A stretch of 60,433 bases of DNA from an uncultured Bacilli bacterium (GTDB lineage Bacteria > Bacillota_I > Bacilli_A > RF39 > UBA660), in assembly GCA_947623685.1 (NCBI GenBank), contig CANQHF010000005.1, positions 1 through 60,433 on the forward strand. Reading direction: 5' to 3'. The notes beneath the pieces are model-generated. The model was given only the letters and a program-made list of their open reading frames with translations. It had not been told where the DNA came from and made no database searches. This document shows, in pieces, positions 2,412-12,885 of the stretch; the stretch's first letter is position 1, and each line of letters starts with the position of its first letter. A program made the translations under genes and the position numbers.

Positions 2412-3017
2412 TTATCCTGAAATATAGAATAAAATTGATTTTGTTAAATCAGAACAATCACTAAAATTCTTTATTTTAAATTTGTTTAAAAGTGATAATA
2501 AAACAGTTTCATTTTCAATATTTATTTTATCAATATTTTGCCAAATAGGTAAATATTCTATTGTCATTTGAACATCATAACCAAAAAAACTAGATAAATT
2601 ACAATCTTTATATAACCACGTTTCTTCATAAAAACCTGAATCAAAGTTATAAAATTCATCGTTAATTAAAACCCCGTTGCAACTTCTACCATAATTTTCG
2701 TAATTATAAACGATTTTAAATTTATAATTATCAGACAGAATATTTTCAAAATTAGAAGAACTTGCTAAAGTGAAAAAAGAAGGTTTTAGCTGGGTTACTT
2801 TCTTAAATTCACTTAACGTTTCATAAATTTCTTTCTTCGAGATATTCTTCAAAAAAAAGATATCCCCACCATCTGTTTTTTTATGCTCATATAAATTCAA
2901 ACTAATATATTCGGATAACTTTTGGTGTAACTTTTTCAATTTTGATTTATCAAAATTTTCATTTTTACCATTGATGCAAATGTAAGCCGGTATTCCACCT
3001 GCCAAATATCTCCCCAT
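2412..3017 (-). CDS. hypothetical protein (201 aa), no recognisable motif
   Basis: Long ORF with AGGAG-type RBS (aaaggagtg) upstream of the ATG. Confidence 0.5.
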   Translation of the reverse strand: MGRYLAGGIPAYICINGKNENFDKSKLKKLHQKLSEYISLNLYEHKKTDGGDIFFLKNISKKEIYETLSEFKKVTQLKPSFFTLASSSNFENILSDNYKFKIVYNYENYGRSCNGVLINDEFYNFDSGFYEETWLYKDCNLSSFFGYDVQMTIEYLPIWQNIDKINIENETVLLSLLNKFKIKNFSDCSDLTKSILFYISG

Positions 3018-3666
3018 AAAAAATCACACTCCTTTACTTATAATTGGGAATAAAAATAACCTAAAACTTCAAAAGTTTTTCAAATATTACTCAAATTACA
3101 TATAGCATAACTAAAATATTATGTCAATAAACTTAAAACCCAATAATTAATAACTTTTAGATTTTCATTATTGTATTATCTATAGGCTTTTTATTCCTTT
3201 TTTAATAGCTAGTAATCAGTCTTTTCTTTAAATTTCAAAGTTAATCTTAGTTTATTAGATTATTTAAATATGATAAATATAAACTCTATATCAAATAATA
3301 TTTAATTTTTTAGTATATTATTATCTCATAAAATTTATCATAACAAATGAGATTTATATTATTTTTAAAATATGTTTTTAATTGATATTTTAAGCATTAA
3401 AAACCAACTATTATTATATTTTCAAATGAAAAAATAATAATTAGTTGGCCGCGTTTCTTATTACCCAGTATTTTAAAATTAAATATATTTTATTTTCAAA
3501 ATAAATTATTAATATATAAATTATAAGTATATAAATCATAAATATATGATAACTTGTAAACTGATTTAGATTTATCAAAAAGCCTAAATAGGATAACAAG
3601 AAATACTTGGGCTAAAAACTTTATTTTTTATTTAATCTACAAAATAACTTAGTAGAACCCCAAAAA

Positions 3667-4143
3667 TTAAATTTCAAACTCAATAGAGTTTAGTTTTGAT
3701 ATTTCAAAATCTGTTTTTTGTATTTTTTTGTCAATCTCATCAAGTCTTTGTCTTAATTTTTTAGGATCAAAGTTTAATGTTTTGCATTCAAAATAAGAAT
3801 TGTTTACTTCAGTAACCCTTTTCTTTGAACTCTTAAGTAATAGTAATTGTTCATATAATGATTTAAGTTTTCTTAAGTTAGAGTTATCTACTATTGCTTG
3901 TTGTATGCTTCTTTGGTCAGTTAATTTAAATTGGTTATTTTTCTCATATAAAGTTGTTTTTAGTTTTGATAATTTTTTAGCACTTTTTTCGATTTCATTT
4001 AAATCCAAATCAAAGGTTTCTTTATTATCCTCAACTACGTTAACCCTACCATCTAGCTCTTCAACTGATGTATTAGTTGCATATTCTTTAATAGTATAAC
4101 TTTTATTATCTAGATACCTTTCTTCTTCTGATATTAAACTCAT
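3667..4143 (-). CDS. hypothetical coiled-coil protein (158 aa)
   Basis: ORF rich in heptad-like K/E/L sequence. Its ATG has no SD of its own and directly follows a 7-codon mini-ORF that does have a strong SD. Confidence 0.45.
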   Translation of the reverse strand: MSLISEEERYLDNKSYTIKEYATNTSVEELDGRVNVVEDNKETFDLDLNEIEKSAKKLSKLKTTLYEKNNQFKLTDQRSIQQAIVDNSNLRKLKSLYEQLLLLKSSKKRVTEVNNSYFECKTLNFDPKKLRQRLDEIDKKIQKTDFEISKLNSIEFEI

Positions 4144-4214
4144 TTATGCTGATATATTTGTTTTCACTTTAATCACTCTCCTTTTAAGTGATTAAATTTT
4201 ACTATATTTAAAAA

Positions 4215-4243
4215 TAAAAAAGGTCGCAAAAAAAGCGACAAAA
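4215..4243 (-). terminator. rho-independent terminator after the HTH gene
   Basis: Minus strand GTCGC-ttttttt-GCGAC followed by a T-run. Confidence 0.55.
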
Positions 4244-4250
4244 AAAGCTG

Positions 4251-4619
4251 TTATAAAACAGCATTTGTATAAGTATAGAGATAATGATTTATAATATCGA
4301 TATCATAAATACTATTATCTAAACAGTATGTAATAATTAAATCAAATTTGCTTCTGCTTAAAGAATAACCAGCACTATTTAACAATACGTTAAATTTGCA
4401 CTTGTTTAAACTTAAAGCAAAACATAATTTAATAACCACGTTCCTTTTAGGAATATAGTAATTACTACATCTGATTTTAGAAAATAACTTTCTATCTATA
4501 CCTACTTTTTTGTAAATCTCTGAATCTTTAACGCCCTTTTCATCTATAAAAGAGAAAAGAATTTCGTTAAAACTCTTCGACTTATTGTGACTTAAATAGT
4601 CTTTGCAACTTTCTTTCAT
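4251..4619 (-). CDS. small helix-turn-helix domain protein (122 aa)
   Basis: FSFIDEKGVKDSEIYKKVGIDRKLFSKIR...SAGYSLSRSKFDLII pattern typical of a Firmicutes HTH-domain family; RBS taggaggt. Confidence 0.6.
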   Translation of the reverse strand: MKESCKDYLSHNKSKSFNEILFSFIDEKGVKDSEIYKKVGIDRKLFSKIRCSNYYIPKRNVVIKLCFALSLNKCKFNVLLNSAGYSLSRSKFDLIITYCLDNSIYDIDIINHYLYTYTNAVL

Positions 4620-4817
4620 ATGAAACCTCCTAATAACATTTTCTAATCGTAAATTAAATTACAATATAATCTTTGAATCATAAGACCAAAATTCTTACAA
4701 TTCTAACATAGGACCTTCTTTTTCATATAAAATATTTAAATCACAAAGTTGATTTCTCAACTCATTAACTAATTTAACATACTTTTATTTTATTTTCAAG
4801 ATAAAAACTAAAAAACC

Positions 4818-6102
4818 TAGGGCAATCGCAAGAAAAAAAGCAATAAAAGAAAAAGAAATATGTAAATTTTGTTGTAAAGAATATAGAAAGTAGTAAATAA
4901 AACATATATAATATATCTTATAAGAAAGGATATAATATATGAAAAAAGATTTACTAAACTATTTTGATGTAATTGAAGATCCTAGAAAAAACAAAGGAAA
5001 ATTACATAAATTAAACGACATAATTATTATGTGTATTTTTGCAATATTATCTAATTGTAAAGATGCTACTGAGATTGCTTATTTTTTAGAACTAAGAAAG
5101 GATTATTTTACCAACTTATTAGGTTTAAAATATGGTACTCCTTCCCATGATACTATTTCTTGGGTATTTAGAATTATTAATCCAAAAAAATTTATGGATG
5201 TTTTTATTGATTGGGTTAAACAAATCATTAGTATAAAATCTAATGATAAATATAAAATTATACCAATTGATGGAAAAGCTATTAAAAGTGCAACTGATAA
5301 AGTTAATAATGGTAATATACCTTATATCGTTTCTGCCTTTTCCCAAGAATTAGGCTTATCCATTGGGCAAGTTAAAGTGGATGATAAATCTAATGAAATA
5401 ACTGCTATTCCAGATTTACTTGATTTAATAGATATTAAAGATTGTATCGTAACAATTGATGCCATTGGTACTCAAAAAAATATAGTTAATAAAATTGTTA
5501 ATGAAAAAGAAGCTCATTATTGTTTTTCAGTTAAATCCAATCAAAAAAACTTGTTTTATGATATTGATGAATATTTTAAATTTGCCTTAAATGATAAACA
5601 TGAGCTTTCTAAATTAAGTTTCTATTCTTCTTCTAACAAAGAACATGGAAGAATCGAAAAGAGAGAATGCTATGTTTGTAATGATATTAATTTTATTAAT
5701 GATAAAGAACTTTGGACTAATTTAAAATCAATTATTTTAATTAGAAATTATCGTGAAGAATATGGTAATTTATCTATTGATGATAGATATTATATTTCTG
5801 ATTTGATACTTTCCGCGCAATCCTTTTGTGATATTGTTAGGAAACATTGGTCTATCGAGAACAATTTACATTGGATACTTGATGTTCATTTTAGAGAAGA
5901 TTTATCTTTGGCAAAGAAAAATAATGCTATTTCTAATTTTTCTATTGTTAGAAAGTTTTGCTATAACTTAACTAACTTGGATGACAATCTCAAACACTTA
6001 TCTATCAAAAAAAGATTAGCTAATTATCAATATAATATCTCTAACATTGAAAATCTTCTAATCTCCATTTTTAATAACTTTTAGTTTCTTGCGATTGCCC
6101 TA
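4818..6102 (+). mobile_element. ISAs1-family insertion sequence, apparently intact
   Basis: Perfect 18-bp terminal inverted repeats TAGGGCAATCGCAAGAAA (4818..4835) / TTTCTTGCGATTGCCCTA (6085..6102); 9-bp direct repeat TAAAAAACC at 4809..4817 and 6103..6111; single transposase ORF. Confidence 0.85.
4939..6084 (+). CDS. ISAs1-family (H-repeat-associated) DDE transposase
   Basis: N-terminal FDVIEDPRKNKGKLHKLNDIIIMCIFAILSNCKD... and C-terminal HWSIENNLHWILDVHFRED motifs typical of ISAs1 transposases. Confidence 0.85.
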   Translation: MKKDLLNYFDVIEDPRKNKGKLHKLNDIIIMCIFAILSNCKDATEIAYFLELRKDYFTNLLGLKYGTPSHDTISWVFRIINPKKFMDVFIDWVKQIISIKSNDKYKIIPIDGKAIKSATDKVNNGNIPYIVSAFSQELGLSIGQVKVDDKSNEITAIPDLLDLIDIKDCIVTIDAIGTQKNIVNKIVNEKEAHYCFSVKSNQKNLFYDIDEYFKFALNDKHELSKLSFYSSSNKEHGRIEKRECYVCNDINFINDKELWTNLKSIILIRNYREEYGNLSIDDRYYISDLILSAQSFCDIVRKHWSIENNLHWILDVHFREDLSLAKKNNAISNFSIVRKFCYNLTNLDDNLKHLSIKKRLANYQYNISNIENLLISIFNNF

Positions 6103-6103
6103 T

Positions 6104-6134
6104 AAAAAACCTAATTTCTTAAAAAGAAATCAGG
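6104..6134 (-). terminator. rho-independent terminator (T1) following hairpin H1
   Basis: Minus strand CCTGATTTCT-ttttaa-GAAATTAGG followed by TTTTTT; homologous to T3 at 6494..6530. Confidence 0.6.
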
Positions 6135-6140
6135 CAATTG

Positions 6141-6167
6141 ACCTAGGGCTTCTAAAGTTTCCTAGGC
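6141..6167 (-). repeat. conserved stem-loop motif copy H1
   Basis: Minus strand GCCTAGG-AAACTTTAGAAGC-CCTAGGT: 7-bp stem including one G.U pair, 13-nt conserved loop. Confidence 0.7.
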
Positions 6168-6180
6168 ACTACTTTATAAA

Positions 6181-6209
6181 GTGTATCATAATCTTGCATA
6201 TAAAGTCAA
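6181..6209 (-). promoter_or_regulatory. promoter P1 (TTGACT-N18-TGaTACACT), weaker copy of P2
   Basis: Minus strand TTGACT(6209..6204) ...TATGATACACT; same layout as P2. Confidence 0.4.
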
Positions 6210-6353
6210 TACATTTTAAAAAATTATTACTTTCGGCCATAATAACCTTTTATTTTTTAAAATTTATTATGCACATTATTATCGCAAGCTGTAATAAAAA
6301 AACAATCTTTTTGCAAACAAAAAAAGCTAAGTAAATCTTAGCCTTTAATTTTA

Positions 6354-6443
6354 TTATTTTCCTTGCTTTTCATTAATAGCTGCTTGTAACACAGCCAAGT
6401 TCGGAATGCAATTGATATTTAAGCATAAATCTTCTTTGAAGAC
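6354..6443 (-). pseudogene. degenerate remnant resembling the 3' coding end of ppdK (copy 1)
   Basis: Minus-strand translation VFKEDLCLNINCIPNLAVLQAAINEKQGK* versus ppdK ...[47 protein letters not shown] is identical to the real ppdK 3' end; followed by its own terminator GCTAAG-atttac-CTTAGC-T7 (6325..6350). Confidence 0.55.
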
Positions 6444-6493
6444 TTACTTCACCAATAACATACAAATTAATTATATCACAATCGCCAATTAAC

Positions 6494-6530
6494 AAAAATA
6501 CCTAATCTCTTAAAAGAAATTAGGTAGATT
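6494..6530 (-). terminator. rho-independent terminator (T3) after Abi_2 gene 1 and hairpin H3
   Basis: Minus strand CCTAATTTCT-tttaag-AGATTAGG then TATTTTT. Confidence 0.6.
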
Positions 6531-6531
6531 G

Positions 6532-6558
6532 ACTTAAGGCTTCGTAAGTTTCTTAAAT
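6532..6558 (-). repeat. conserved stem-loop motif copy H3
   Basis: Minus strand ATTTAAG-AAACTTACGAAGC-CTTAAGT: 7-bp stem with one U.G pair. Confidence 0.7.
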
Positions 6559-6594
6559 ACTAATCAATAATATTATATGAATTATCTGTATTAT

Positions 6595-7464
6595 TTATAC
6601 ATTAGGATATCCCATGATTTTCAAAATTATTCTAGCATCTATTGATTTAATAGACTCATTTAACTTATCAAACTCTTTATTAATCAAATTTATTAAGTCA
6701 TTGTAATCTTGTTCATTTAAGAATTTTTCCATACTTCTAATTAACATATATAAATTAGTTGAATTGTTATTTACTTTATATGTGTTATCTATTAAGCTAA
6801 AAGTCATAAAAAATTTACTATGAAAAGAAAATAATCTATCAGAATGAGCACAAATATTTCTTGCTAATGTCATATTAATAAGAATTTGCTTTAATAATTT
6901 TGGTGATACATTAAATTTTTTAGCTATTTCATTTCTATCTGATTGTTTTAATAATCCGTACCATCTACTTATTTGCCCAAAAGACAATATTTTAATTGCA
7001 ACAAATGGAGGTATAAAACCATAAGTTTGATCATAATGCGTAATAGCTGGATGCTTACCTTTATTTTTATCAATTTCTGTATTGATAGAATCAATTACAT
7101 CATTTATATCATCTTCATTTGCTAATTCATCAAAATTTGTTTTGTTAAGATAATCTTGAATTCCATAATTCTTAGCGATGATATTTCCCATAACACCTCT
7201 TATTTTTAATTCGAATTCTAAAGCATACTTTAAAAATATAACTCTTATATTTTTATCAAAATCATATAAAGAATATATTTCATCAAAATGAACATTTTCA
7301 AAATATGTATTATCATCTTTTTTAAATACATATTTATATGTGTTAATAACAGAATAATATGAATAATTATCTATAATATTTAAAGCTATATTCTCATCAT
7401 CAATTATTACATTTTTATTTTTTAAATGTTCTAATAATTCTTCATTATGTTTATATTCTTTCAT
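6595..7464 (-). CDS. Abi_2 (AbiD/AbiF-like) abortive-infection family protein with HEPN-type Rx4H motif
   Basis: LEHLKNKNVII..., NYSYYSVINTYKY, YDFDKNIR and ARNICAH (R-x4-H) motifs. I chose the ATG at 7464 (GGGGGAA SD 6 nt upstream) over the ORF-track start at 7542, which would read through hairpin H2. Confidence 0.8.
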   Translation of the reverse strand: MKEYKHNEELLEHLKNKNVIIDDENIALNIIDNYSYYSVINTYKYVFKKDDNTYFENVHFDEIYSLYDFDKNIRVIFLKYALEFELKIRGVMGNIIAKNYGIQDYLNKTNFDELANEDDINDVIDSINTEIDKNKGKHPAITHYDQTYGFIPPFVAIKILSFGQISRWYGLLKQSDRNEIAKKFNVSPKLLKQILINMTLARNICAHSDRLFSFHSKFFMTFSLIDNTYKVNNNSTNLYMLIRSMEKFLNEQDYNDLINLINKEFDKLNESIKSIDARIILKIMGYPNV

Positions 7465-7491
7465 ATAATATTCCCCCATAAATAAAAATTG

Positions 7492-7518
7492 ACTCAGGGC
7501 TTCATAAGTTTCCTGAGT
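7492..7518 (-). repeat. conserved stem-loop motif copy H2, in the 5' UTR of Abi_2 gene 1
   Basis: Minus strand ACTCAGG-AAACTTATGAAGC-CCTGAGT: perfect 7-bp stem. Confidence 0.7.
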
Positions 7519-7532
7519 ACCAATCAATATAG

Positions 7533-7562
7533 AATATATCATATGTTTACATATAAAGTCAA
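7533..7562 (-). promoter_or_regulatory. promoter P2 for Abi_2 gene 1 (TTGACT-N18 with extended -10 TGaTATATT)
   Basis: Minus strand TTGACT(7562..7557) ttatatgtaaacata TGA TATATT(7538..7533). Confidence 0.55.
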
Positions 7563-7703
7563 TATATTTTTTATAGTTTTAAAAAATTATTACTTTCAAC
7601 CGTAATAACTTTTTAATTTTTAAAATTTATTACACGCATTATTATCACAAGCTATAATAAAAAACAATCTTTTCGCAAACAAAAAAGACTAAGAATTTAT
7701 TGT

Positions 7704-7736
7704 AGAAAAATAGGGCTCTATCCTAAAATAGACCCC
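7704..7736 (-). terminator. rho-independent terminator ending the PHP-ATPase/101-aa/Abi_2 operon
   Basis: Minus strand GGGTCTAT-tttag-GATAGAGCCC followed by TATTTTT. Confidence 0.6.
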
Positions 7737-7803
7737 TTGCAAAAATGATTTAACATTTTTTCCTTGCATAGATAATATATCACAAAATTATATCTATGTC
7801 AAA

Positions 7804-8802
7804 CTACTCATCCAAAATTTCTTTATAATTTTTTTCAATTATTTTATCAAAATATTGATAAATGGATTTAAGTAGTTCATTATTAGTATAGTATTTTCTA
7901 TTAAGAATTATTCTTCCATAAAATAATTTACTAATATCATGGTTAACATTTCTTTTTATTCCATCGCTACTTACAATAACATTAAATAAATATAAAGTAT
8001 AAGTTATTTGTCTTATTCTTGAATTTTTTAGTTTATTATCTCGATTTTCTTTTCCTATACCACAATCTTTTAGGTAGTTAATAATTAAAATATCTGGTCT
8101 ATGGGTATTATCTTTTTTATCAAGGTCGGATAATACACAAGAATTATGAGCTACTGCATTTCTAAGTTTATTTACTTCTCTTAAAATAAATACATATTTT
8201 TTATCTTCTAAATTATAATGAGCAGTAAAAAATTCAAAAAAGTTTATCAATTCTCCAAAAGTTATTATTTCTAAAAACTCCCATATTGGAATATTTTCAA
8301 GTTTTTTATCTTTATCTAAATCATACTTTGAAAATATTTTTTTATAATATTCATTAGATACTTTCTTCATAATACTATCATGCACTCTTTTAGGAAACTG
8401 TTCATCATTATAATCTTTATCAAGATATAAATTTACAATATTGTATCCGTCTTCTTCATCTATTTCCTCAATACTATTTAATATTCTAATCTTTAAATAA
8501 TGTTCAATATCAATTATCATTTTAAATAGCACAATTCTAGTTCTATAATCTATAATTGATAAGTCTTTCAAGTAAGCAAAATCTAAATCAATATATTTAC
8601 CTGTTGATTCCCCACATTGATATTTAATAAAATTATTTTTATATGATGTTACATTAAAATAATTATTATTTTCTCTAAGATATTGTTCAGCATCTTGTTC
8701 TTTGCATTCTTCAAATTTAATATTTTTTTGTTTTAAATATGGAACCATTTCAGAAATTTTCATCATGGGTCTTAAAGTATTTGTATTAATATTTTCAATC
8801 AT
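7804..8802 (-). CDS. Abi_2 (AbiD/AbiF-like) abortive-infection family protein with HEPN-type Rx4H motif
   Basis: AEQYLRENNNYFNVTSYKNNF, IDYRTRIVLFKMIIDIEHYLK and LRNAVAH (R-x4-H); RBS gaaggtga. Confidence 0.8.
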   Translation of the reverse strand: MIENINTNTLRPMMKISEMVPYLKQKNIKFEECKEQDAEQYLRENNNYFNVTSYKNNFIKYQCGESTGKYIDLDFAYLKDLSIIDYRTRIVLFKMIIDIEHYLKIRILNSIEEIDEEDGYNIVNLYLDKDYNDEQFPKRVHDSIMKKVSNEYYKKIFSKYDLDKDKKLENIPIWEFLEIITFGELINFFEFFTAHYNLEDKKYVFILREVNKLRNAVAHNSCVLSDLDKKDNTHRPDILIINYLKDCGIGKENRDNKLKNSRIRQITYTLYLFNVIVSSDGIKRNVNHDISKLFYGRIILNRKYYTNNELLKSIYQYFDKIIEKNYKEILDE

Positions 8803-8867
8803 GATATCACCTTCTTTTAGTAGATATTATAATATTTTCAAAGCTTTATTGTATATTACTTTATATA

Positions 8868-9173
8868 TTATTCAGATGTTTTGTCATTTTCATTAGCTAA
8901 TTGTATTTTCATTGACTCATCTATTGATGAAAATAACTCACTTACCTTTTCATATATTGGATAACATATTTTGTCTTCTTTCTTATCATCAGCAGTAGTA
9001 CAATCAACAATCTCAAATGAATCGTTTATTGAATATTCATTGAAAAATTGTGTATAAAGTTCTAAACCATTAAGCATTTTTTCTTTCTCATCAATTACAA
9101 TTTTATTATCTTTATCTACTTCTTTAAAAATATATTTATTGTCTTTTTTTATAAAATTAATTATTCTTTTCAT
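8868..9173 (-). CDS. hypothetical 101-aa acidic protein, translationally coupled to the upstream PHP-ATPase gene
   Basis: Start overlaps the last 17 nt of 9157..11532; 65-nt gap to the Abi_2 gene; no recognisable motif. Confidence 0.55.
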   Translation of the reverse strand: MKRIINFIKKDNKYIFKEVDKDNKIVIDEKEKMLNGLELYTQFFNEYSINDSFEIVDCTTADDKKEDKICYPIYEKVSELFSSIDESMKIQLANENDKTSE

Positions 9174-11532
9174 ATTTTTTATACCTTTCTTTAAGTGAAT
9201 CTATTCCACCCTCTATATTATCAGCAATAATTTTTAGCATATCTATTTTATCATCTTTATATTCCAAAGCACCACTTTCTATACTAATTTTTTCAGTTTC
9301 TTCATCTTTTTTCATAAATATAACATTATCAACATCTAAATTAATAATAAATTGTGGATTGTGTGTTATTAGTATTACTTGCCTATGATCAGAAATTTTT
9401 TTAAAATCTTTTAAAAGTCTCTTTTTAATTGATGGCTGAGAAACATCATCTTCAGGTTGATCAATTATATATAATCCTGTATTTTTAATATCATTAGATA
9501 GTAATTCAAAATATATTTGAGCATTTGCACCAGATGATAGTTCTTTTGTTACATCCGAATCTTTAGCATTATTTATACAATTTCTTATTTTTAAATCTTT
9601 ATTTAATTTTTCAATTAATTTTAATTTATAATAATTCAAAATATCATCAGGCATATTCTCTCCAGTTTTAATATTTTCTTTAAACTCATCAGGGTCAACT
9701 AAAGATAAATTGATTATTCTTTTTTTATAATTAGCTTGTAATTGACTAACTAACAATTCAAATATATAGTTAGAGTCAATTTTAGTAACATCTGATTTAC
9801 ATATAAATCTATATTCCCCATTACTATTTATTTCTGGTTTTAGTTTAATTTCATCAAAATTTAAATTAAACTTTGTTTCATTTTCATTAAGTTTAATTAA
9901 ATTACATATTATTTTAGATAATTGAATGAACTTTAAATTATATGATTCTCTTTGTTTTTGTTCTTCAGTTTTTGTATTTTCCAACTCTGTATTAAAAACT
10001 GTTATTTTATTATTTATTATTGTTACTTTTTTCTCTTCTAATTTGATTTTTTCTACTAAATCTTGATATTTATCTTTTAATTTTTTCAAAAAGCATGAAT
10101 ATTGTTTGATTTTATTTAATTCTTTTTCATCTAACAACTTATTTTTTGATAACTCATCATTAAGTGTAATTAATTGAGAAATGTTTAAAACAAGATTTTT
10201 ATAGTTAGCTTCATTGGCCTTTAAGTCAATATCAATTGGAAGAACCTGCAACGATATTGAAATTTCTTCGTGCAATTCAAATGAAATATTTCCTAATTTA
10301 GCTTTTTCTGATTTTATTTTTTCCTTATTTTTTATAAAATTAATGAATTCATCTATCTTTTTTTCTACTTTTTGTTTTTCTAAAAAATAATTAGGTTCAA
10401 TAGGATAATATTCATTTATAAAATCCTTAGATTTTGTCTTATTATTTGTAAATATATCTCTTATACTTCCTTGTTTATCAAAATGCCTTATATTTTCTGG
10501 AGAAATTTTAGTAATAACATCAATTTTATTTTCTTTTAAGTAGTTATCATAAGCAGTTATCAATTTTTTATCAGAAGATATTTCTCTATAATCTGTCATT
10601 TTGTGCAAAAGTAAAGATTTTCCAATAGAATTATCTCCTATTATTGCATTAATTCCTCTTGACAATTCTATTTCATTTTTGCATCCATCTATAGTAATTT
10701 CTATTTTATCAATTGGAGAATTAGTAGAAAAAAAACTACTAACGCCAATTTTTATTCTACGTGAATCAGTAATTGCCATCATTACCCCTCTAAATGTTGG
10801 AAGACATTTAAAATAACTAAATTCAAAATCTCCATCATTTGTTTTTTCAGGATAATCATTCCAATTATGACAGTCACTTCCAGTAATAAATTGCATATTT
10901 TTCAATCTAGGTTTTTGATTTTCTATATAAGATTTATTAAATATTTCATTTCTTTTGTTTTTGAATTCATAAGCTTCAAAATAATCAATAAAAACAAAAT
11001 CTTCTAACGATTTAATTCCAATACTATTTACATCATGTTTTCTAACTTTAGAACTACTGAGACTCTCTTTTTGATGAGCAATCAAAATAACATCAAGGCC
11101 AATTTTTCTCAATATACTAATAAATTTTTCTTCTGAAAAAGCATTTTCTAAATCATACAATGGTTTGTTTATTTCCTTATTAAAAATATCAGATTGAATT
11201 GATTGTAAATTAGAATTACTATTATCATTAAATAATGCTATGATATGCAAAACTTCACTCTCAATTTTCACACTAAATTCAATACCAGGCAATACTTTTT
11301 TTATACAATTATCAATTAATTCTTGTTCTTTTAATTTTATATATAGATTATAATCAAAATTATCATGATCAGTAATTGAAACCATATTTACTTCGTTTTC
11401 AACTAATTTAGAAATTAAAATTGGAAGATTTTCTATTGTACCATCACTAACAATTTTTTTATCTTTATGATTAGAAGAAATCGAATGAATATGAAAATCA
11501 ACTTTTAAGGGTTTTTTTACAATTTTTTCCAT
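9157..11532 (-). CDS. PHP-domain phosphoesterase fused to an ABC/SMC-like (OLD/AAA_15-type) ATPase with a long coiled-coil insertion
   Basis: PHP motifs DFHIHS, ITDHDN, GIEFS, LHIIAL, IAHQ, GSDCH in the first roughly 230 aa; Walker A GDNSIGKS; about 300 aa K/E/L-rich coiled-coil; signature-like SSGANAQ; Walker B LYIIDQPEDD; H-loop ILITHNP. Confidence 0.8.
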   Translation of the reverse strand: MEKIVKKPLKVDFHIHSISSNHKDKKIVSDGTIENLPILISKLVENEVNMVSITDHDNFDYNLYIKLKEQELIDNCIKKVLPGIEFSVKIESEVLHIIALFNDNSNSNLQSIQSDIFNKEINKPLYDLENAFSEEKFISILRKIGLDVILIAHQKESLSSSKVRKHDVNSIGIKSLEDFVFIDYFEAYEFKNKRNEIFNKSYIENQKPRLKNMQFITGSDCHNWNDYPEKTNDGDFEFSYFKCLPTFRGVMMAITDSRRIKIGVSSFFSTNSPIDKIEITIDGCKNEIELSRGINAIIGDNSIGKSLLLHKMTDYREISSDKKLITAYDNYLKENKIDVITKISPENIRHFDKQGSIRDIFTNNKTKSKDFINEYYPIEPNYFLEKQKVEKKIDEFINFIKNKEKIKSEKAKLGNISFELHEEISISLQVLPIDIDLKANEANYKNLVLNISQLITLNDELSKNKLLDEKELNKIKQYSCFLKKLKDKYQDLVEKIKLEEKKVTIINNKITVFNTELENTKTEEQKQRESYNLKFIQLSKIICNLIKLNENETKFNLNFDEIKLKPEINSNGEYRFICKSDVTKIDSNYIFELLVSQLQANYKKRIINLSLVDPDEFKENIKTGENMPDDILNYYKLKLIEKLNKDLKIRNCINNAKDSDVTKELSSGANAQIYFELLSNDIKNTGLYIIDQPEDDVSQPSIKKRLLKDFKKISDHRQVILITHNPQFIINLDVDNVIFMKKDEETEKISIESGALEYKDDKIDMLKIIADNIEGGIDSLKERYKKYEKNN

Positions 11533-11585
11533 ATTATTCCAACTTTCTAATTTATTATTTTAACATATTTATTTATTAATTTTAA

Positions 11586-12457
11586 TCAATTTTTAAATTT
11601 TTTATTAATAAAATTTTTATAATAACTAATGGCATCAATAATATATTGCTCAATATACCTTTTATCTCTTTTCAATAATTCTTTTGGTAAGACCGATTCT
11701 ATTTTTTCTTTGTTAAACGAAATTTTGTCATTTTGGTTTCCTTTTTTCTCTAGCAATATATTTTCTACCATATCAAAAGTTAATTTTTTCTTTTCACTTA
11801 TTTTTCTAATTTTTAAGGCTTGAGCATAACTTGGTGTAACTTCTTCATAAGTAATTGTAAAATATACTAATTCTTGAGCATCTTTTGCTAGATAAGAAAG
11901 TTCAACAGCGGTAGTTATTCCTAAAGTTAAAATACTTCTCTTATCATAAATAACCGTATCATCAACAATTTTTAGTAGTTCGGGTATCAAATAAGTCAGT
12001 CTTATATACCTTCGTACTTGTTCTCGGGATTCTCCGCTAACTTTAGATATTAATTCAACTGATGTTAACTTCTGCACATCCTGTGTAGAAGTTTTTTCCC
12101 TTGATGTTTAATTGCCTCTAATTTCATTTTATAAGCAAATGCTTTTTCTGATGGTAAAATTTTATTTCGATAAATATTAGAATCTACCATGTAAATAGTA
12201 GCTTCATCATCATTTAATTCTTCAATATAACAATCAGCCTCATAAATTCCATTTATTTCTAATGCTAATTTTCTTCTATGGCCTGATATCATTTCAAATC
12301 TTCCGTTTTCTTTTCTTCTTACCACTAATGGATTTAACAATCCATTTTCTTTAATGCTATTTCTTAATTCATTTAATGCCTCATCTTTTTCTACTCTAAA
12401 AGGATGATTTTTAAAAGAATCTATCATTCTTAAATCTATTTTTATTATTTCTTTCAT
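11586..12457 (-). pseudogene. ParB/Srx-like nuclease-domain plus HTH protein split by a frameshift in an A6 run
   Basis: ORF 12065..12457 carries the ParB N-domain (LNPLVVRR, ISGHRRKLA) and ends ...KHQGKKLLHRMCRS*. ORF 11586..12077 continues in another frame with QKLTSVELISKVSGESREQVRRYIRL. One extra A in the run (T6 at 12092..12097 on +) would give KHQGKKTSTQDVQKLTS. Confidence 0.7.
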
Positions 12458-12885
12458 CTATTCTCCTTCTTTCAATTCATAGCTAAGTTTCCATTCAAGA
12501 TATTTTTCATAAGACAATTCTCTTGAATCTCTTAACTTTTTCATTTTTTCCCATTCTTCCATAAATTTTAAAATCAAATTATCTCTATCATTACGAAAGT
12601 ATTCTGAAATTGCAAAATCTATATTCATTTTAGGAAATAACTCTTCTAACCATAATAGAAAATAAATTATATCTTCAGATCTGTCAAAGTTATATTTTCG
12701 AATACAATTAATATTAACATTTAGTATATTAGCTATTTCTAAAAGTCTATCTTCTTTGGGAACTCTTTCACCACTTTCATATCTTGCCATTTCTCTTCTC
12801 TTATTTTCCTTTTTCATTCCTAACTTTTCCGCAACCTCTTCTTGTGTTAATCCTCTAATTCATGTCTAAAATATATTCTTCTCAT
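12458..12885 (-). pseudogene. XRE-family HTH regulator with a 1-nt frameshift near its 5' end
   Basis: ATG at 12885 gives MRRIYFRHELED*. The next frame continues (I)RGLTQEEVAEKLGMKKENKRREMARYESGERVPKEDRLLEIANILNV, a canonical HTH_3 pattern. The ORF-track ORF 12458..12817 starts at an internal Met and lacks helix 1-2. Confidence 0.65.

Follow-up and report, generated by a model that had tools for sequence, protein, structure and literature searches.

A probable two-gene PHP-ATPase relative of Ppl and TrlF, set beside independent Abi_2 cassettes in an uncultured Bacilli bacterium

The window, by which is meant the whole 60,433-nucleotide stretch of DNA that was analysed, contains a gene for a 791-aa fusion protein whose stop is overlapped by 17 nt by the start of a 101-aa open reading frame, and this is followed after a 65-nt gap, in the same orientation, by a gene for an Abi_2/AbiD-like protein (Table 1). 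An earlier note, made from the letters of the sequence, had described these three open reading frames together with the overlap and the gap, and all of them were recovered at exactly the coordinates it gave. It had also placed the genes in a defence island, and Pfam searches of the neighbourhood bear this out, as they found a second Abi_2 gene, an IS (DDE_Tnp_1), and decayed pieces in the form of a ParB_N fragment and an HTH fragment.

Table 1. Features of the locus, with positions in the window
Feature	Position	Strand	Basis
Second Abi_2/AbiD gene, separate cassette	6595..7542	-	Pfam; PADLOC
Promoter-like box (TTGACA-17-TATATT with TG) and three-helix RNA element	7700..7802	-	Conserved in Abi_2 cassette
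First Abi_2/AbiD-like HEPN protein, 332 aa	7804..8802	-	Pfam; PADLOC; own -10 box
Extended -10 box of first Abi_2	8826..8831		Conserved among Abi_2 relatives
Junction between pair cassette and Abi_2 cassette	8842..8866	.	DNA similarity breaks
101-aa acidic partner, second gene of module	8868..9173	-	ORF list; homologues in 82 loci
791-aa fusion protein, first gene of module	9157..11532	-	ORF list; motifs; AF2; Foldseek; NCBIfam partial matches
ABC ATPase motif set of 791-aa protein	9355..10638	-	Motif positions; alignment
PHP active-site set (HxH 14-16, DH 55-56, E85, H96, H153, DxH 220-222)	10867..11493	-	
PHP domain of 791-aa protein, N-terminal	about aa 1-260		

The 791-aa protein begins with a PHP domain. 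Every residue of the complete PHP motif set claimed in the earlier note is present, and none of them varies across 42 homologues (alignments A1 and A3). The Pfam model suggested as a check on this domain (PF02811) gave no match to the protein at E ≤ 0.01, but the fold itself is backed by the motif set and by a Foldseek match to the PHP domain of RNase AM (probability 1.0). Weak NCBIfam matches to RNase RNM and to nucleoside bisphosphate phosphatase were also obtained. The AF2 model has a pLDDT of 81 overall, with a PHP stretch at residues 150 to 230 that is poorly modelled (pLDDT 36-60).

The remainder of the protein is an ABC ATPase with a Walker A motif (GDNSIGKS, residues 299-306), a Q-loop (Q354), a signature (LSSGAN, 665-670), a Walker B motif (YIIDQPEDD, 688-696), and an H-loop (722-726, including H724). 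These five motifs and a coiled-coil insert place it in the SMC/Rad50-like ABC ATPase superfamily, with the one exception of Gln692, which lies just after a strand at 687-691 in the AF2 model and stands where the catalytic Glu of Walker B is usual. This substitution suggests a binding switch and not a fast motor. Foldseek likens the head to those of SMC, Rad50, RecN, JetC, and AriA (probability 0.9-1.0), so that motifs and modelled fold agree with the SMC/OLD-like Walker A/B ATPase read from the sequence before. The coiled coil that splits the head between its N and C lobes is shorter than the roughly 300 aa first estimated. It is made up of about 170 aa of helix (helices 383-550, AF2), and the rest of the interval between Walker A and the signature is β-structure of the head.

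The product of the second gene is acidic, with a pI of 4.7 in the window and a family median of 4.76. Its AF2 model has a pLDDT of 90 and a pTM of 0.78, and the fold is unrecognised, with no match at E below 0.3 in a search of PDB structures and none in Pfam, PADLOC, or NCBIfam. Homologues of this partner make up at least 205 clusters in a 50% representative library. At 12 loci from nine lineages, all within one ATPase clade, the C-terminal half of the partner is a LexA-like Peptidase_S24 domain, matched at E values of 1e-18 to 1e-23. About 19 among the 150 partner representatives listed have the length of such a fusion (218-246 aa), and six of the seven tested were Peptidase_S24. The fused partners retain the residues aligned to A84, G85, S119, and K156 of E. 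coli LexA; by this alignment, the S24 domain of the fused clade keeps the Ala-Gly cleavage site and the Ser/Lys dyad and is predicted to be catalytically intact. The domain is absent from most members of the partner family, and a domain search found none in the 101-aa partner of the window itself. The likeness to LexA, lambda CI, and UmuD is to the C-terminal domain of one clade's partners, whose N-terminus is a novel acidic domain in place of a DNA-binding HTH.

All 82 full-length loci, which represent 48 lineages at 80% ATPase identity, contain a partner homologue that overlaps the ATPase stop. The module occurs in Bacillota, Coriobacteriia, Mollicutes, and Negativicutes, and at least 1385 ATPase homologues were found among 8000 candidates scored, mostly from gut and rumen anaerobes. 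No match to the family was found on IMG/VR viral contigs, nor a full-length match on PLSDB plasmids. DNA similarity among pair-bearing relatives does not extend past the two genes, and no flanking family is present in more than 7 of the 48 lineages. Downstream of the pair elsewhere are AbiD, GmrSD/SspE-like genes, JetA, methylases, ToxN, PLD, HEC and PDC candidates, integrases, and a transposase. By these comparisons the strictly conserved unit is the two genes at 8868..11532 on the reverse strand. They represent a large family that has so far gone unannotated and that widens the Ppl/TrlF group of PHP-ATPase proteins.

Ppl was reportedly described by Gao et al. in 2020 as a single-gene anti-phage protein of E. 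coli with a PHP and an ATPase domain. The 791-aa protein likewise has a PHP phosphoesterase and a P-loop ATPase in one polypeptide and a defence-island setting. The kinship with Ppl suggested in the earlier note holds for this domain logic and for partial model matches over the C-terminal ATPase lobe, with scores that stay below the full-length cut-off (NCBIfam NF042955, 36.8 bits against 1000, residues 688-786 only; PADLOC PDLC02208, 27.2 bits, residues 685-786 only). PADLOC returned partial matches to GajA and PtuA as well. Ppl acts alone, whereas the 791-aa family is always accompanied by the small overlapping partner; the protein is also about 90 aa shorter than Ppl and comes from different phyla (gut Bacillota and Coriobacteriia). 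Biochemically, Ppl is reported in a review (PMC12904381) to sense 3'-OH ends and to act as an NTP-inhibited 3'-5' ssDNA exonuclease.

The best-scoring curated family is TrlF (NCBIfam NF045780), which matches in two stretches across residues 10-659 with 144.8 bits against a cut-off of 350. An N-terminal PHP domain, the DQPEDD Walker B, and a GALEY...GG C-terminus are common to Klebsiella TrlF and the 791-aa protein, and both families are accessory and horizontally spread, TrlF often on plasmids. TrlF is larger, at about 890-945 aa, and in the TrlF loci looked at, from Klebsiella and Lactococcus, there was neither an overlapping partner nor a partner homologue. The temperature-restriction locus of Photorhabdus is made up of trlR-trlF-trlG, in which TrlR is a small regulator and TrlG is an AlbA_2 plus HATPase_c_4 protein; a TrlG-like gene adjoins the pair, divergently, in 1 of the 48 lineages, and there is none in the window. 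The Spaf_1101 model (NCBIfam NF045781; 60.5 bits, with the cut-off at 475) aligns over nearly the entire protein, residues 38-789 to model positions 96-834, and the Spaf_1101 locus on a C. botulinum plasmid has no partner gene. The unusual DQPEDD Walker B is found in Ppl, TrlF, and Spaf_1101 as in the 791-aa protein, but since the scores are far below the cut-offs of all three families, function can be transferred at the superfamily level only. SbcCD/Mre11-Rad50 and OLD/GajA/PARIS AriA resemble the protein in that a metal-dependent nuclease is governed by an ABC head that is SMC-like and bears a coiled coil. In those systems the nuclease is an Mre11 phosphoesterase or a TOPRIM domain, and here it is an N-terminally fused PHP domain. 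The coiled coil is also short, no zinc-hook was identified, and Gln takes the place of the catalytic Glu. Judged on sequence, the module appears to be an uncharacterised two-gene relative of the Ppl/TrlF anti-phage kind.

The two downstream genes are both genuine members of Abi_2 (PF07751; 83.1 bits for the first and 148.2 for the second, with a cut-off of 25.6) and share the Rx4H motif with AbiD, AbiD1, and AbiF. The first, in which Rx4H is RNAVAH at residues 214-219 (R214 to H219), matches Pfam at E 3.9e-23 and the PADLOC AbiD model at 6.5e-18, as expected from its earlier description as an Abi_2 protein with a HEPN motif; in the second the motif is RNICAH at 228-233. The earlier note put the three genes forward as a candidate composite anti-phage system with a HEPN effector; in such a system the first Abi_2 protein would be the effector, and sensing of infection would fall to the PHP-ATPase and the small protein. 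The three genes are indeed co-oriented and closely spaced with a terminator-free partner-Abi_2 interval, and three independent lineages have an Abi_2 gene of like orientation directly behind the pair: that of the window, L001, and L006; six Collinsella loci; and L063. However, none follows it in the other 45 of the 48, and the pair was found within 5 kb of the gene in none of 80 genomes that have 60-98% homologues of the first Abi_2. Even where the two adjoin, in L006 and Collinsella, the Abi_2 protein resembles the second Abi of the window and not the first, so that different Abi_2 subfamilies are involved.

The DNA itself also parts the genes. In pair-bearing relatives, similarity to the window ends at 8867-8952, and in Abi_2-bearing relatives it begins at 8831-8841. 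The cassettes occur in several combinations. The window has the pair with both Abi_2 genes, L006 has the pair directly followed by the second, L086 has an OLD-like gene with the first, and in L090 and L158 the first adjoins the PPDK gene. In a sibling genome, the exact slot that the pair has in the window, with the ParB fragment on one side and the Abi_2 cassette on the other, is occupied by an OLD-like AAA_15 plus TOPRIM gene. The first Abi_2 gene comes with a -10 box and a 3' element of its own, and AbiD-type genes are single-gene systems by PADLOC definition. The hairpin at 7704..7736, taken earlier for the terminator of a three-gene unit, does exist, but it belongs to the Abi_2 cassette and does not close such a unit. 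A composite system is therefore very unlikely, and comparative genomics has largely refuted it: across genomes the two genes of the pair always occur together, and the third essentially does not go with them. The trio is better read as a juxtaposition inside a defence island, with Abi_2 as a putatively autonomous neighbouring cassette and not a component of the module. Each of the Abi_2 genes makes up a single-gene defence cassette of its own, of AbiD type (HEPN), and the two are stacked in the same hotspot downstream of the PPDK gene. Because there is no terminator between the partner and the first Abi_2 gene in the window, read-through may take place, and such co-transcription would be incidental here. 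Some loose functional synergy is conceivable, given this interval and the recurrence of Abi_2 downstream in three lineages. That a plausible-looking "operon" resolves into separately mobile defence cassettes is a warning against composite calls from one genome.

The reading we favour, and hold to be probable, is that the unit is a two-gene PHP-ATPase with a regulatory partner, related to Ppl and TrlF, beside Abi_2 genes that are independent cassettes. By analogy with Ppl, Rad50-Mre11/SbcCD, and OLD/GajA, the ATPase head may be a nucleotide- and DNA-end-sensing switch that would license the PHP domain to degrade invader DNA or RNA. The partner, whose gene is translationally coupled to gene 1, is most likely a regulatory subunit bound to the ATPase-nuclease and would keep the enzyme inactive. 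Since the fold of the partner is unrecognised, this inhibitory role is argued from the S24 fusion, the acidity, and the gene coupling; the fusion of one clade's partner to an intact LexA-like domain suggests that the partner is a safety catch that can be taken off the nuclease. In that clade, phage replication or DNA damage would lead to RecA-ssDNA filaments, and these would cause the partner to cleave itself and so release the nuclease. A RecA trigger is not directly applicable in the window, as the partner there lacks the S24 domain, and the short 101-aa form would have to be triggered differently, for instance by displacement or turnover.

S24 fusions usually mark DNA-binding repressors, and on that ground the partner might be a transcription factor, a LexA/CI-like repressor of the module with a novel DNA-binding domain, and not an inhibitor of the enzyme. 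The fusion architecture is identical to that of LexA, CI, and other S24 proteins, whose N-terminal DNA-binding domain is released by cleavage, and TrlF loci have a small regulator in TrlR. We consider this rather unlikely, as the partner is acidic, has no HTH, known DNA-binding fold, or Pfam match, and in most of the family is without the S24 dimerisation domain; its gene also lies downstream of and overlaps the enzyme gene, an arrangement typical of stoichiometric partners and not of autoregulators. Still less probable is that the pair serves DNA repair, in SbcCD/Rad50-Mre11- or RecN-like end processing, with a LexA-like partner that would reflect SOS regulation. Such a role would fit the resemblance to Rad50, RecN, and SMC heads, the SbcCD logic of a nuclease joined to an SMC-like ATPase, and the standing of S24/LexA-type domains as hallmarks of the DNA-damage response. 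The distribution speaks against this role: the module is patchy across phyla, with few genomes per genus, in variable islands that hold R-M, GmrSD, Wadjet, ToxN, Abi, and integrase genes, and the sibling genome lacks it, with an OLD-type nuclease at that position. The nearest characterised relatives are Ppl, which is a defence protein, and TrlF, from an accessory growth-restriction locus.

It can be proposed tentatively that the module is an undescribed two-component immune nuclease with a safety-catch partner and, in one clade, a LexA-like sensor cleavable by RecA*, and that, separately, the Abi_2 clade is perhaps under a three-helix 3' RNA that acts as antitoxin or regulator. Answers to how Ppl-like proteins are silenced and triggered have only recently begun to appear, and the LexA-type fusion offers a concrete hypothesis on both points.

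Another lead of comparable size is the structured RNA that goes with a HEPN Abi_2 clade. The cassette of the first Abi_2 reaches to 7677 and differs from AbiD, AbiD1, and AbiF in carrying this conserved 3' element, which was not found described for them. Helix 3 of the element is the hairpin at 7704..7736, with eight of nine pairs and a T-run (a U-run in RNA); it was read from the sequence and was missed by a simple terminator scan. The element is present at 71 of 80 Abi_2 loci, with 97.5% of cells paired as compared with 37-56% in slid controls, and compensatory changes are seen in 12 of its 26 pairs.

The ATPase gene and the small gene overlapping its end are strictly paired. The earlier note had read three minus-strand ORFs as one unit, and the ORFs lie where it placed them, with the overlap and the gap it described both borne out by their positions (see table). 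Among 84 related loci taken from species-representative genomes, partner homologues were sought by an iterated profile search starting from the small protein. At every locus with a full ATPase gene (82/82), the start of a partner homologue overlaps the ATPase stop; grouped at 80 % ATPase identity, these loci make up 48 lineages found in Bacilli, Clostridia, Mollicutes-like MAGs, Negativicutes (Sporomusa, Phascolarctobacterium), and Coriobacteriia (Collinsella, Olsenella, Adlercreutzia, Gordonibacter). In three relatives (63-65 %), DNA similarity to the window starts no more than ~90 nt 5' of the ATPase start and ends at or before the partner stop codon, with a maximum extent of 11619..8867. 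The most frequent flanking gene family occurs in at most 7 of the 48 lineages. Genes directly 3' of the pair include those for AbiD, GmrSD/SspE-like proteins, JetA, type II methylases, ToxN, PLD nuclease, and AAA_15/21, as well as HEC and PDC candidates, integrases, and a transposase, a mixture typical of defence islands. No relative of the pair was found in viral contigs, phage records gave two weak partial matches and nothing else, and plasmids gave only TrlF and Spaf_1101 relatives covering at most 20 % of the query. The locus lies in very AT-rich DNA (21-26 % GC), and a contig from an uncultured rabbit-gut Bacilli MAG is 98.9 % identical to window positions 8710..11846.

Features of the locus and of the 791-aa protein (nucleotide positions refer to the window)
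Feature	Position	Strand	Remarks
791-aa PHP-ATPase ORF	9157..11532	minus	first of three ORFs
101-aa partner ORF	8868..9173	minus	17-nt overlap with ATPase ORF
Abi1 ORF (Abi_2 protein)	7804..8802	minus	332 aa; 65-nt gap after partner gene
3' element	7700..7802	minus	~100 nt after Abi1 stop codon; compare L086-L165, just downstream of Abi_2 homologue
XRE/ParB fragments	11586..12817	minus	XRE-like HTH fragment, 119 aa; ParB_N, 130 aa; ParB-C-like ORF, 163 aa, 13-nt overlap with ParB_N
Segment with second Abi_2 gene	2425..7676		Abi2, 6595..7542; IS (DDE_Tnp_1 + DDE_Tnp_1_assoc), 4939..6084; DUF6847 protein, 3667..4143; 122-aa ORF; 201-aa ORF
PHP motif set, 791-aa protein	H14, H16, D55/H56, E85, H96, H153, D220/H222		complete
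ABC-ATPase motifs, 791-aa protein	Walker A 299-306, Q354, signature 665-670, Walker B 688-696, H724
Walker B YIIDQPEDD	aa 688-696; window 9445..9471		Gln692 directly after Walker B strand

The 791-aa protein carries the full set of PHP and Walker A/B motifs originally ascribed to it, and both these and the remaining ABC-ATPase motifs are without variation in 42 homologues of 44-81 % identity. Its AlphaFold2 model (pLDDT 81) matches the heads, with coiled coil, of SMC, cohesin, Rad50, RecN, JetC, and AriA, and at its N-terminus it resembles the RNase AM PHP domain. The coiled coil of roughly 300 aa that had been proposed shrinks in this model to a helical insert of ~170 aa (383-550). The invariant Gln692 replaces the catalytic Glu normally found in ABC ATPases, and the Walker B motif is a natural 'EQ' state. 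In SMC and Rad50 proteins, the 'EQ' state traps ATP-engaged heads.

No curated model in Pfam, PADLOC v2, or NCBIfam claims the pair. The HMM checks proposed at the outset gave a clear match for Abi_2; the 791-aa protein has no Pfam match and falls below the NCBIfam cut-offs for TrlF (144.8 bits against 350), Spaf_1101 (60.5 against 475), and Ppl (36.8 against 1000). PADLOC v2 gave partial, weak matches, to PDC-M49A on the PHP end and, in the final 100 aa, to Ppl, GajA, and PtuA, and a PDB sequence search returned only noise. When the family profile was compared with one TrlF sequence by hhalign, the C-terminal lobe alone aligned. TrlF shares the DQPEDD Walker B and a C-terminal GALEY...GG with the 791-aa protein, and the Gln of its FDQPEDD likewise sits at the catalytic-Glu site. 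In trlR-trlF-trlG, the temperature-restriction locus of Photorhabdus, trlF is the large gene, described as "histidinol-phosphatase-like" (bioRxiv 10.1101/2020.06.02.129163). Plasmids, among them enterobacterial and lactococcal ones, commonly carry members of the TrlF family. Unlike the pair, the examined TrlF loci of Klebsiella and Lactococcus and a Spaf_1101 locus of C. botulinum have neither an overlapping partner nor any homologue of it, so an obligate small partner sets the pair family apart. The same holds against Ppl, a validated single-gene system. A 2026 review describes Ppl as an ssDNA 3′-5′ exonuclease that is inhibited when NTPs are bound to the PHP and NTPase domains and becomes active at 3′-OH ends (PMC12904381); an earlier screen, which called Ppl uncharacterised, found a phage counter-defence gene (PMC11482910). 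Judged by sequence, the pair is a two-gene relative of Ppl/TrlF-type PHP-ATPase proteins, widespread in gut anaerobes and unannotated, and our literature search found no description of it.

Two kinds of gene upstream of the pair deserve mention. A TrlG-like neighbour was considered as a conserved third gene and rejected, as it occurs in only 1 of 48 lineages: in Ca. Onthousia excrementipullorum (L008:3128-4480, minus strand; L008 is the same locus as L002), it lies upstream at a distance of 153 nt from the ATPase gene, divergently oriented, and has the SLFN_AlbA_2, HATPase_c_4, and wHTH architecture of Photorhabdus TrlG. In five lineages (L009, L018, L019, L029, L037), an AAA_21/AAA_15 ATPase of ~390-420 aa is encoded directly upstream, followed in L009 (6033-7980, plus strand) by an RloB-like protein; these genes probably represent a further defence pair nearby.

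With a pI of 4.7 (family median 4.76), the partner is acidic; its confident model (pLDDT 90, pTM 0.78) shows β-β-β-α-β-α and then a long helix at the C-terminus. It has no family match in Pfam, PADLOC, or NCBIfam, and Foldseek found nothing in the PDB with E <0.3. Word-indexed homology searches retrieved 8 proteins with the partner alone and 13 with a profile; an exhaustive profile search was required to recover the family beyond these, and with clustering at 50 % identity it gave at least 205 clusters. One match, P0233, carries FG-GAP repeats and was discarded as spurious. At 12 loci in 9 lineages, all within a single ATPase clade, the partner is longer (213-239 aa), with a Peptidase_S24 domain (E 1e-18 to 1e-20) as the C-terminal half. 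An S24-fused homologue is found, for instance, at L048 in Sporomusa aerivorans DSM 13326. Among the listed partner representatives, ~19 of 150 have a length matching the S24 form, and the domain was confirmed in 6 of 7 tested. Aligned with E. coli LexA, with its cleavage site Ala84-Gly85 and its Ser119 and Lys156, the fused partners keep the cleavage site (as C-A-G), the serine (SGxSMEP), and the lysine (CK[RK]). The S24 dyad is intact in one partner clade. The architecture is that of LexA and CI, except that the partner domain stands where those proteins have a DNA-binding domain, which implies that the partner's function is switched by self-cleavage. S24 self-cleavage is classically stimulated by RecA-ssDNA filaments. 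Separately, on a 2441-nt metagenome contig, the predicted 215-aa protein P0131 joins the first ~113 aa of a ParB-C-terminal-like ORF straight to a partner copy of 73 % identity (window counterparts at 11586..12077 and 8868..9173). Either that strain has seemingly lost the entire ATPase gene by deletion, or the contig is chimeric.

The Abi_2 genes belong to separate cassettes. Both downstream Abi genes, Abi1 next to the pair and Abi2 farther on, encode clear Abi_2/AbiD members with Rx4H. Only three of the 48 lineages have an Abi_2 gene after the pair: that of the window, L001, and L006; six close Collinsella loci; and one Mycoplasma-like MAG, where the Abi_2 match is weak. In L006 and Collinsella, the protein matches Abi2, not the pair-adjacent Abi1. 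Conversely, Abi1 homologues at 60-98 % identity were found in 80 genomes, and in none (0/80) does an ATPase or partner gene lie within 5 kb. In these loci, the stretch with DNA similarity to the window extends from 8831-8841 to 7677, and pair-side similarity ends by 8867, which places the junction of the two cassettes in 8842..8866. An extended −10 box, ATGATATAATAT, is conserved ~30 nt before the RBS of Abi1 homologues, and the sequence 5' of it is unrelated. The window holds pair, Abi1, and Abi2, and L006 (81 % ATPase identity) holds pair and Abi2; in L090 and L158, Abi1 lies near the gene for PPDK (pyruvate phosphate dikinase). The sibling rabbit-gut Bacilli genome at L086 shares synteny with the window between the PPDK gene and the XRE/ParB fragments, both included, and in the pair's slot (window 8868..11600), between the ParB fragment and the Abi1 cassette, it has a 434-aa OLD-type AAA_15 + TOPRIM gene (L086:3648-4952, plus strand). 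This is a clean case of defence genes being swapped at a single hotspot, which lies 3' of the PPDK gene, and, with AbiD, GmrSD, JetA, and ToxN among the pair's neighbours elsewhere, bears out the defence-island setting suggested earlier. The split XRE/ParB_N/ParB-C arrangement is kept in L006 and L086 (~80 % DNA identity); these fragments are resident genes of the locus, not debris carried in by the pair. Relative to L086, L087, and L158, window 2425..7676 is extra DNA inserted between the Abi1 cassette and the region near 2424. The window has no tRNA genes.

By analogy with Rad50-Mre11 and OLD/GajA, the PHP-SMC enzyme would be a nuclease gated, as in Ppl, by nucleotide and DNA end, and a slow-hydrolysing switch would fit the Gln at the catalytic position of Walker B. 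The translationally coupled partner would bind the enzyme and most likely restrain it. In the S24 clade, this restraint could be lifted by DNA damage or phage replication intermediates, and the short form in the window would have to answer another signal. Nuclease activity, complex formation, the partner's inhibitory role, and the pair's defence function are all inferred. Alternatively, the partner could be a LexA-like repressor, as the S24 fusions might suggest; the domain that replaces the DNA-binding one makes us regard this as unlikely. The pair could also be a repair machine, with Rad50 and RecN among its structural matches, and given its defence-island neighbours we hold this to be quite improbable. 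That pair and Abi1 form a true functional unit, the composite anti-phage system proposed in the earlier note, is very improbable. Read-through transcription into Abi1 is possible in the window, since no terminator intervenes, but the independent assortment of the cassettes makes the trio a juxtaposition in the hotspot; the pair is independent of Abi_2. The pair, its S24-fused partners, and the RNA linked to Abi_2 merit specialist attention as candidates identified from sequence.

That RNA is a structured 3' element found in 71 of the 80 loci with an Abi1 homologue and more strongly conserved than the Abi_2 protein. No Rfam family matched it, either above the gathering cut-off or with E <= 5. 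Its start is promoter-like, an invariant TTGACA plus a TATATT box extended by TG; three helices with many compensatory changes follow. Paired cells amount to 97.5 % vs 37-56 % in slid controls, double changes occur in 12 of 26 pairs (99 cells), and none of 500 shuffles reached the observed values. The hairpin at 7704..7736, once taken as a terminator closing the whole unit, does exist, but as helix 3 of this Abi1-linked element. The element could be a structured 3′UTR, an sRNA of ~65 nt transcribed on its own, or both, and one possibility is that it acts as an RNA regulator or antitoxin of the HEPN Abi_2 protein.
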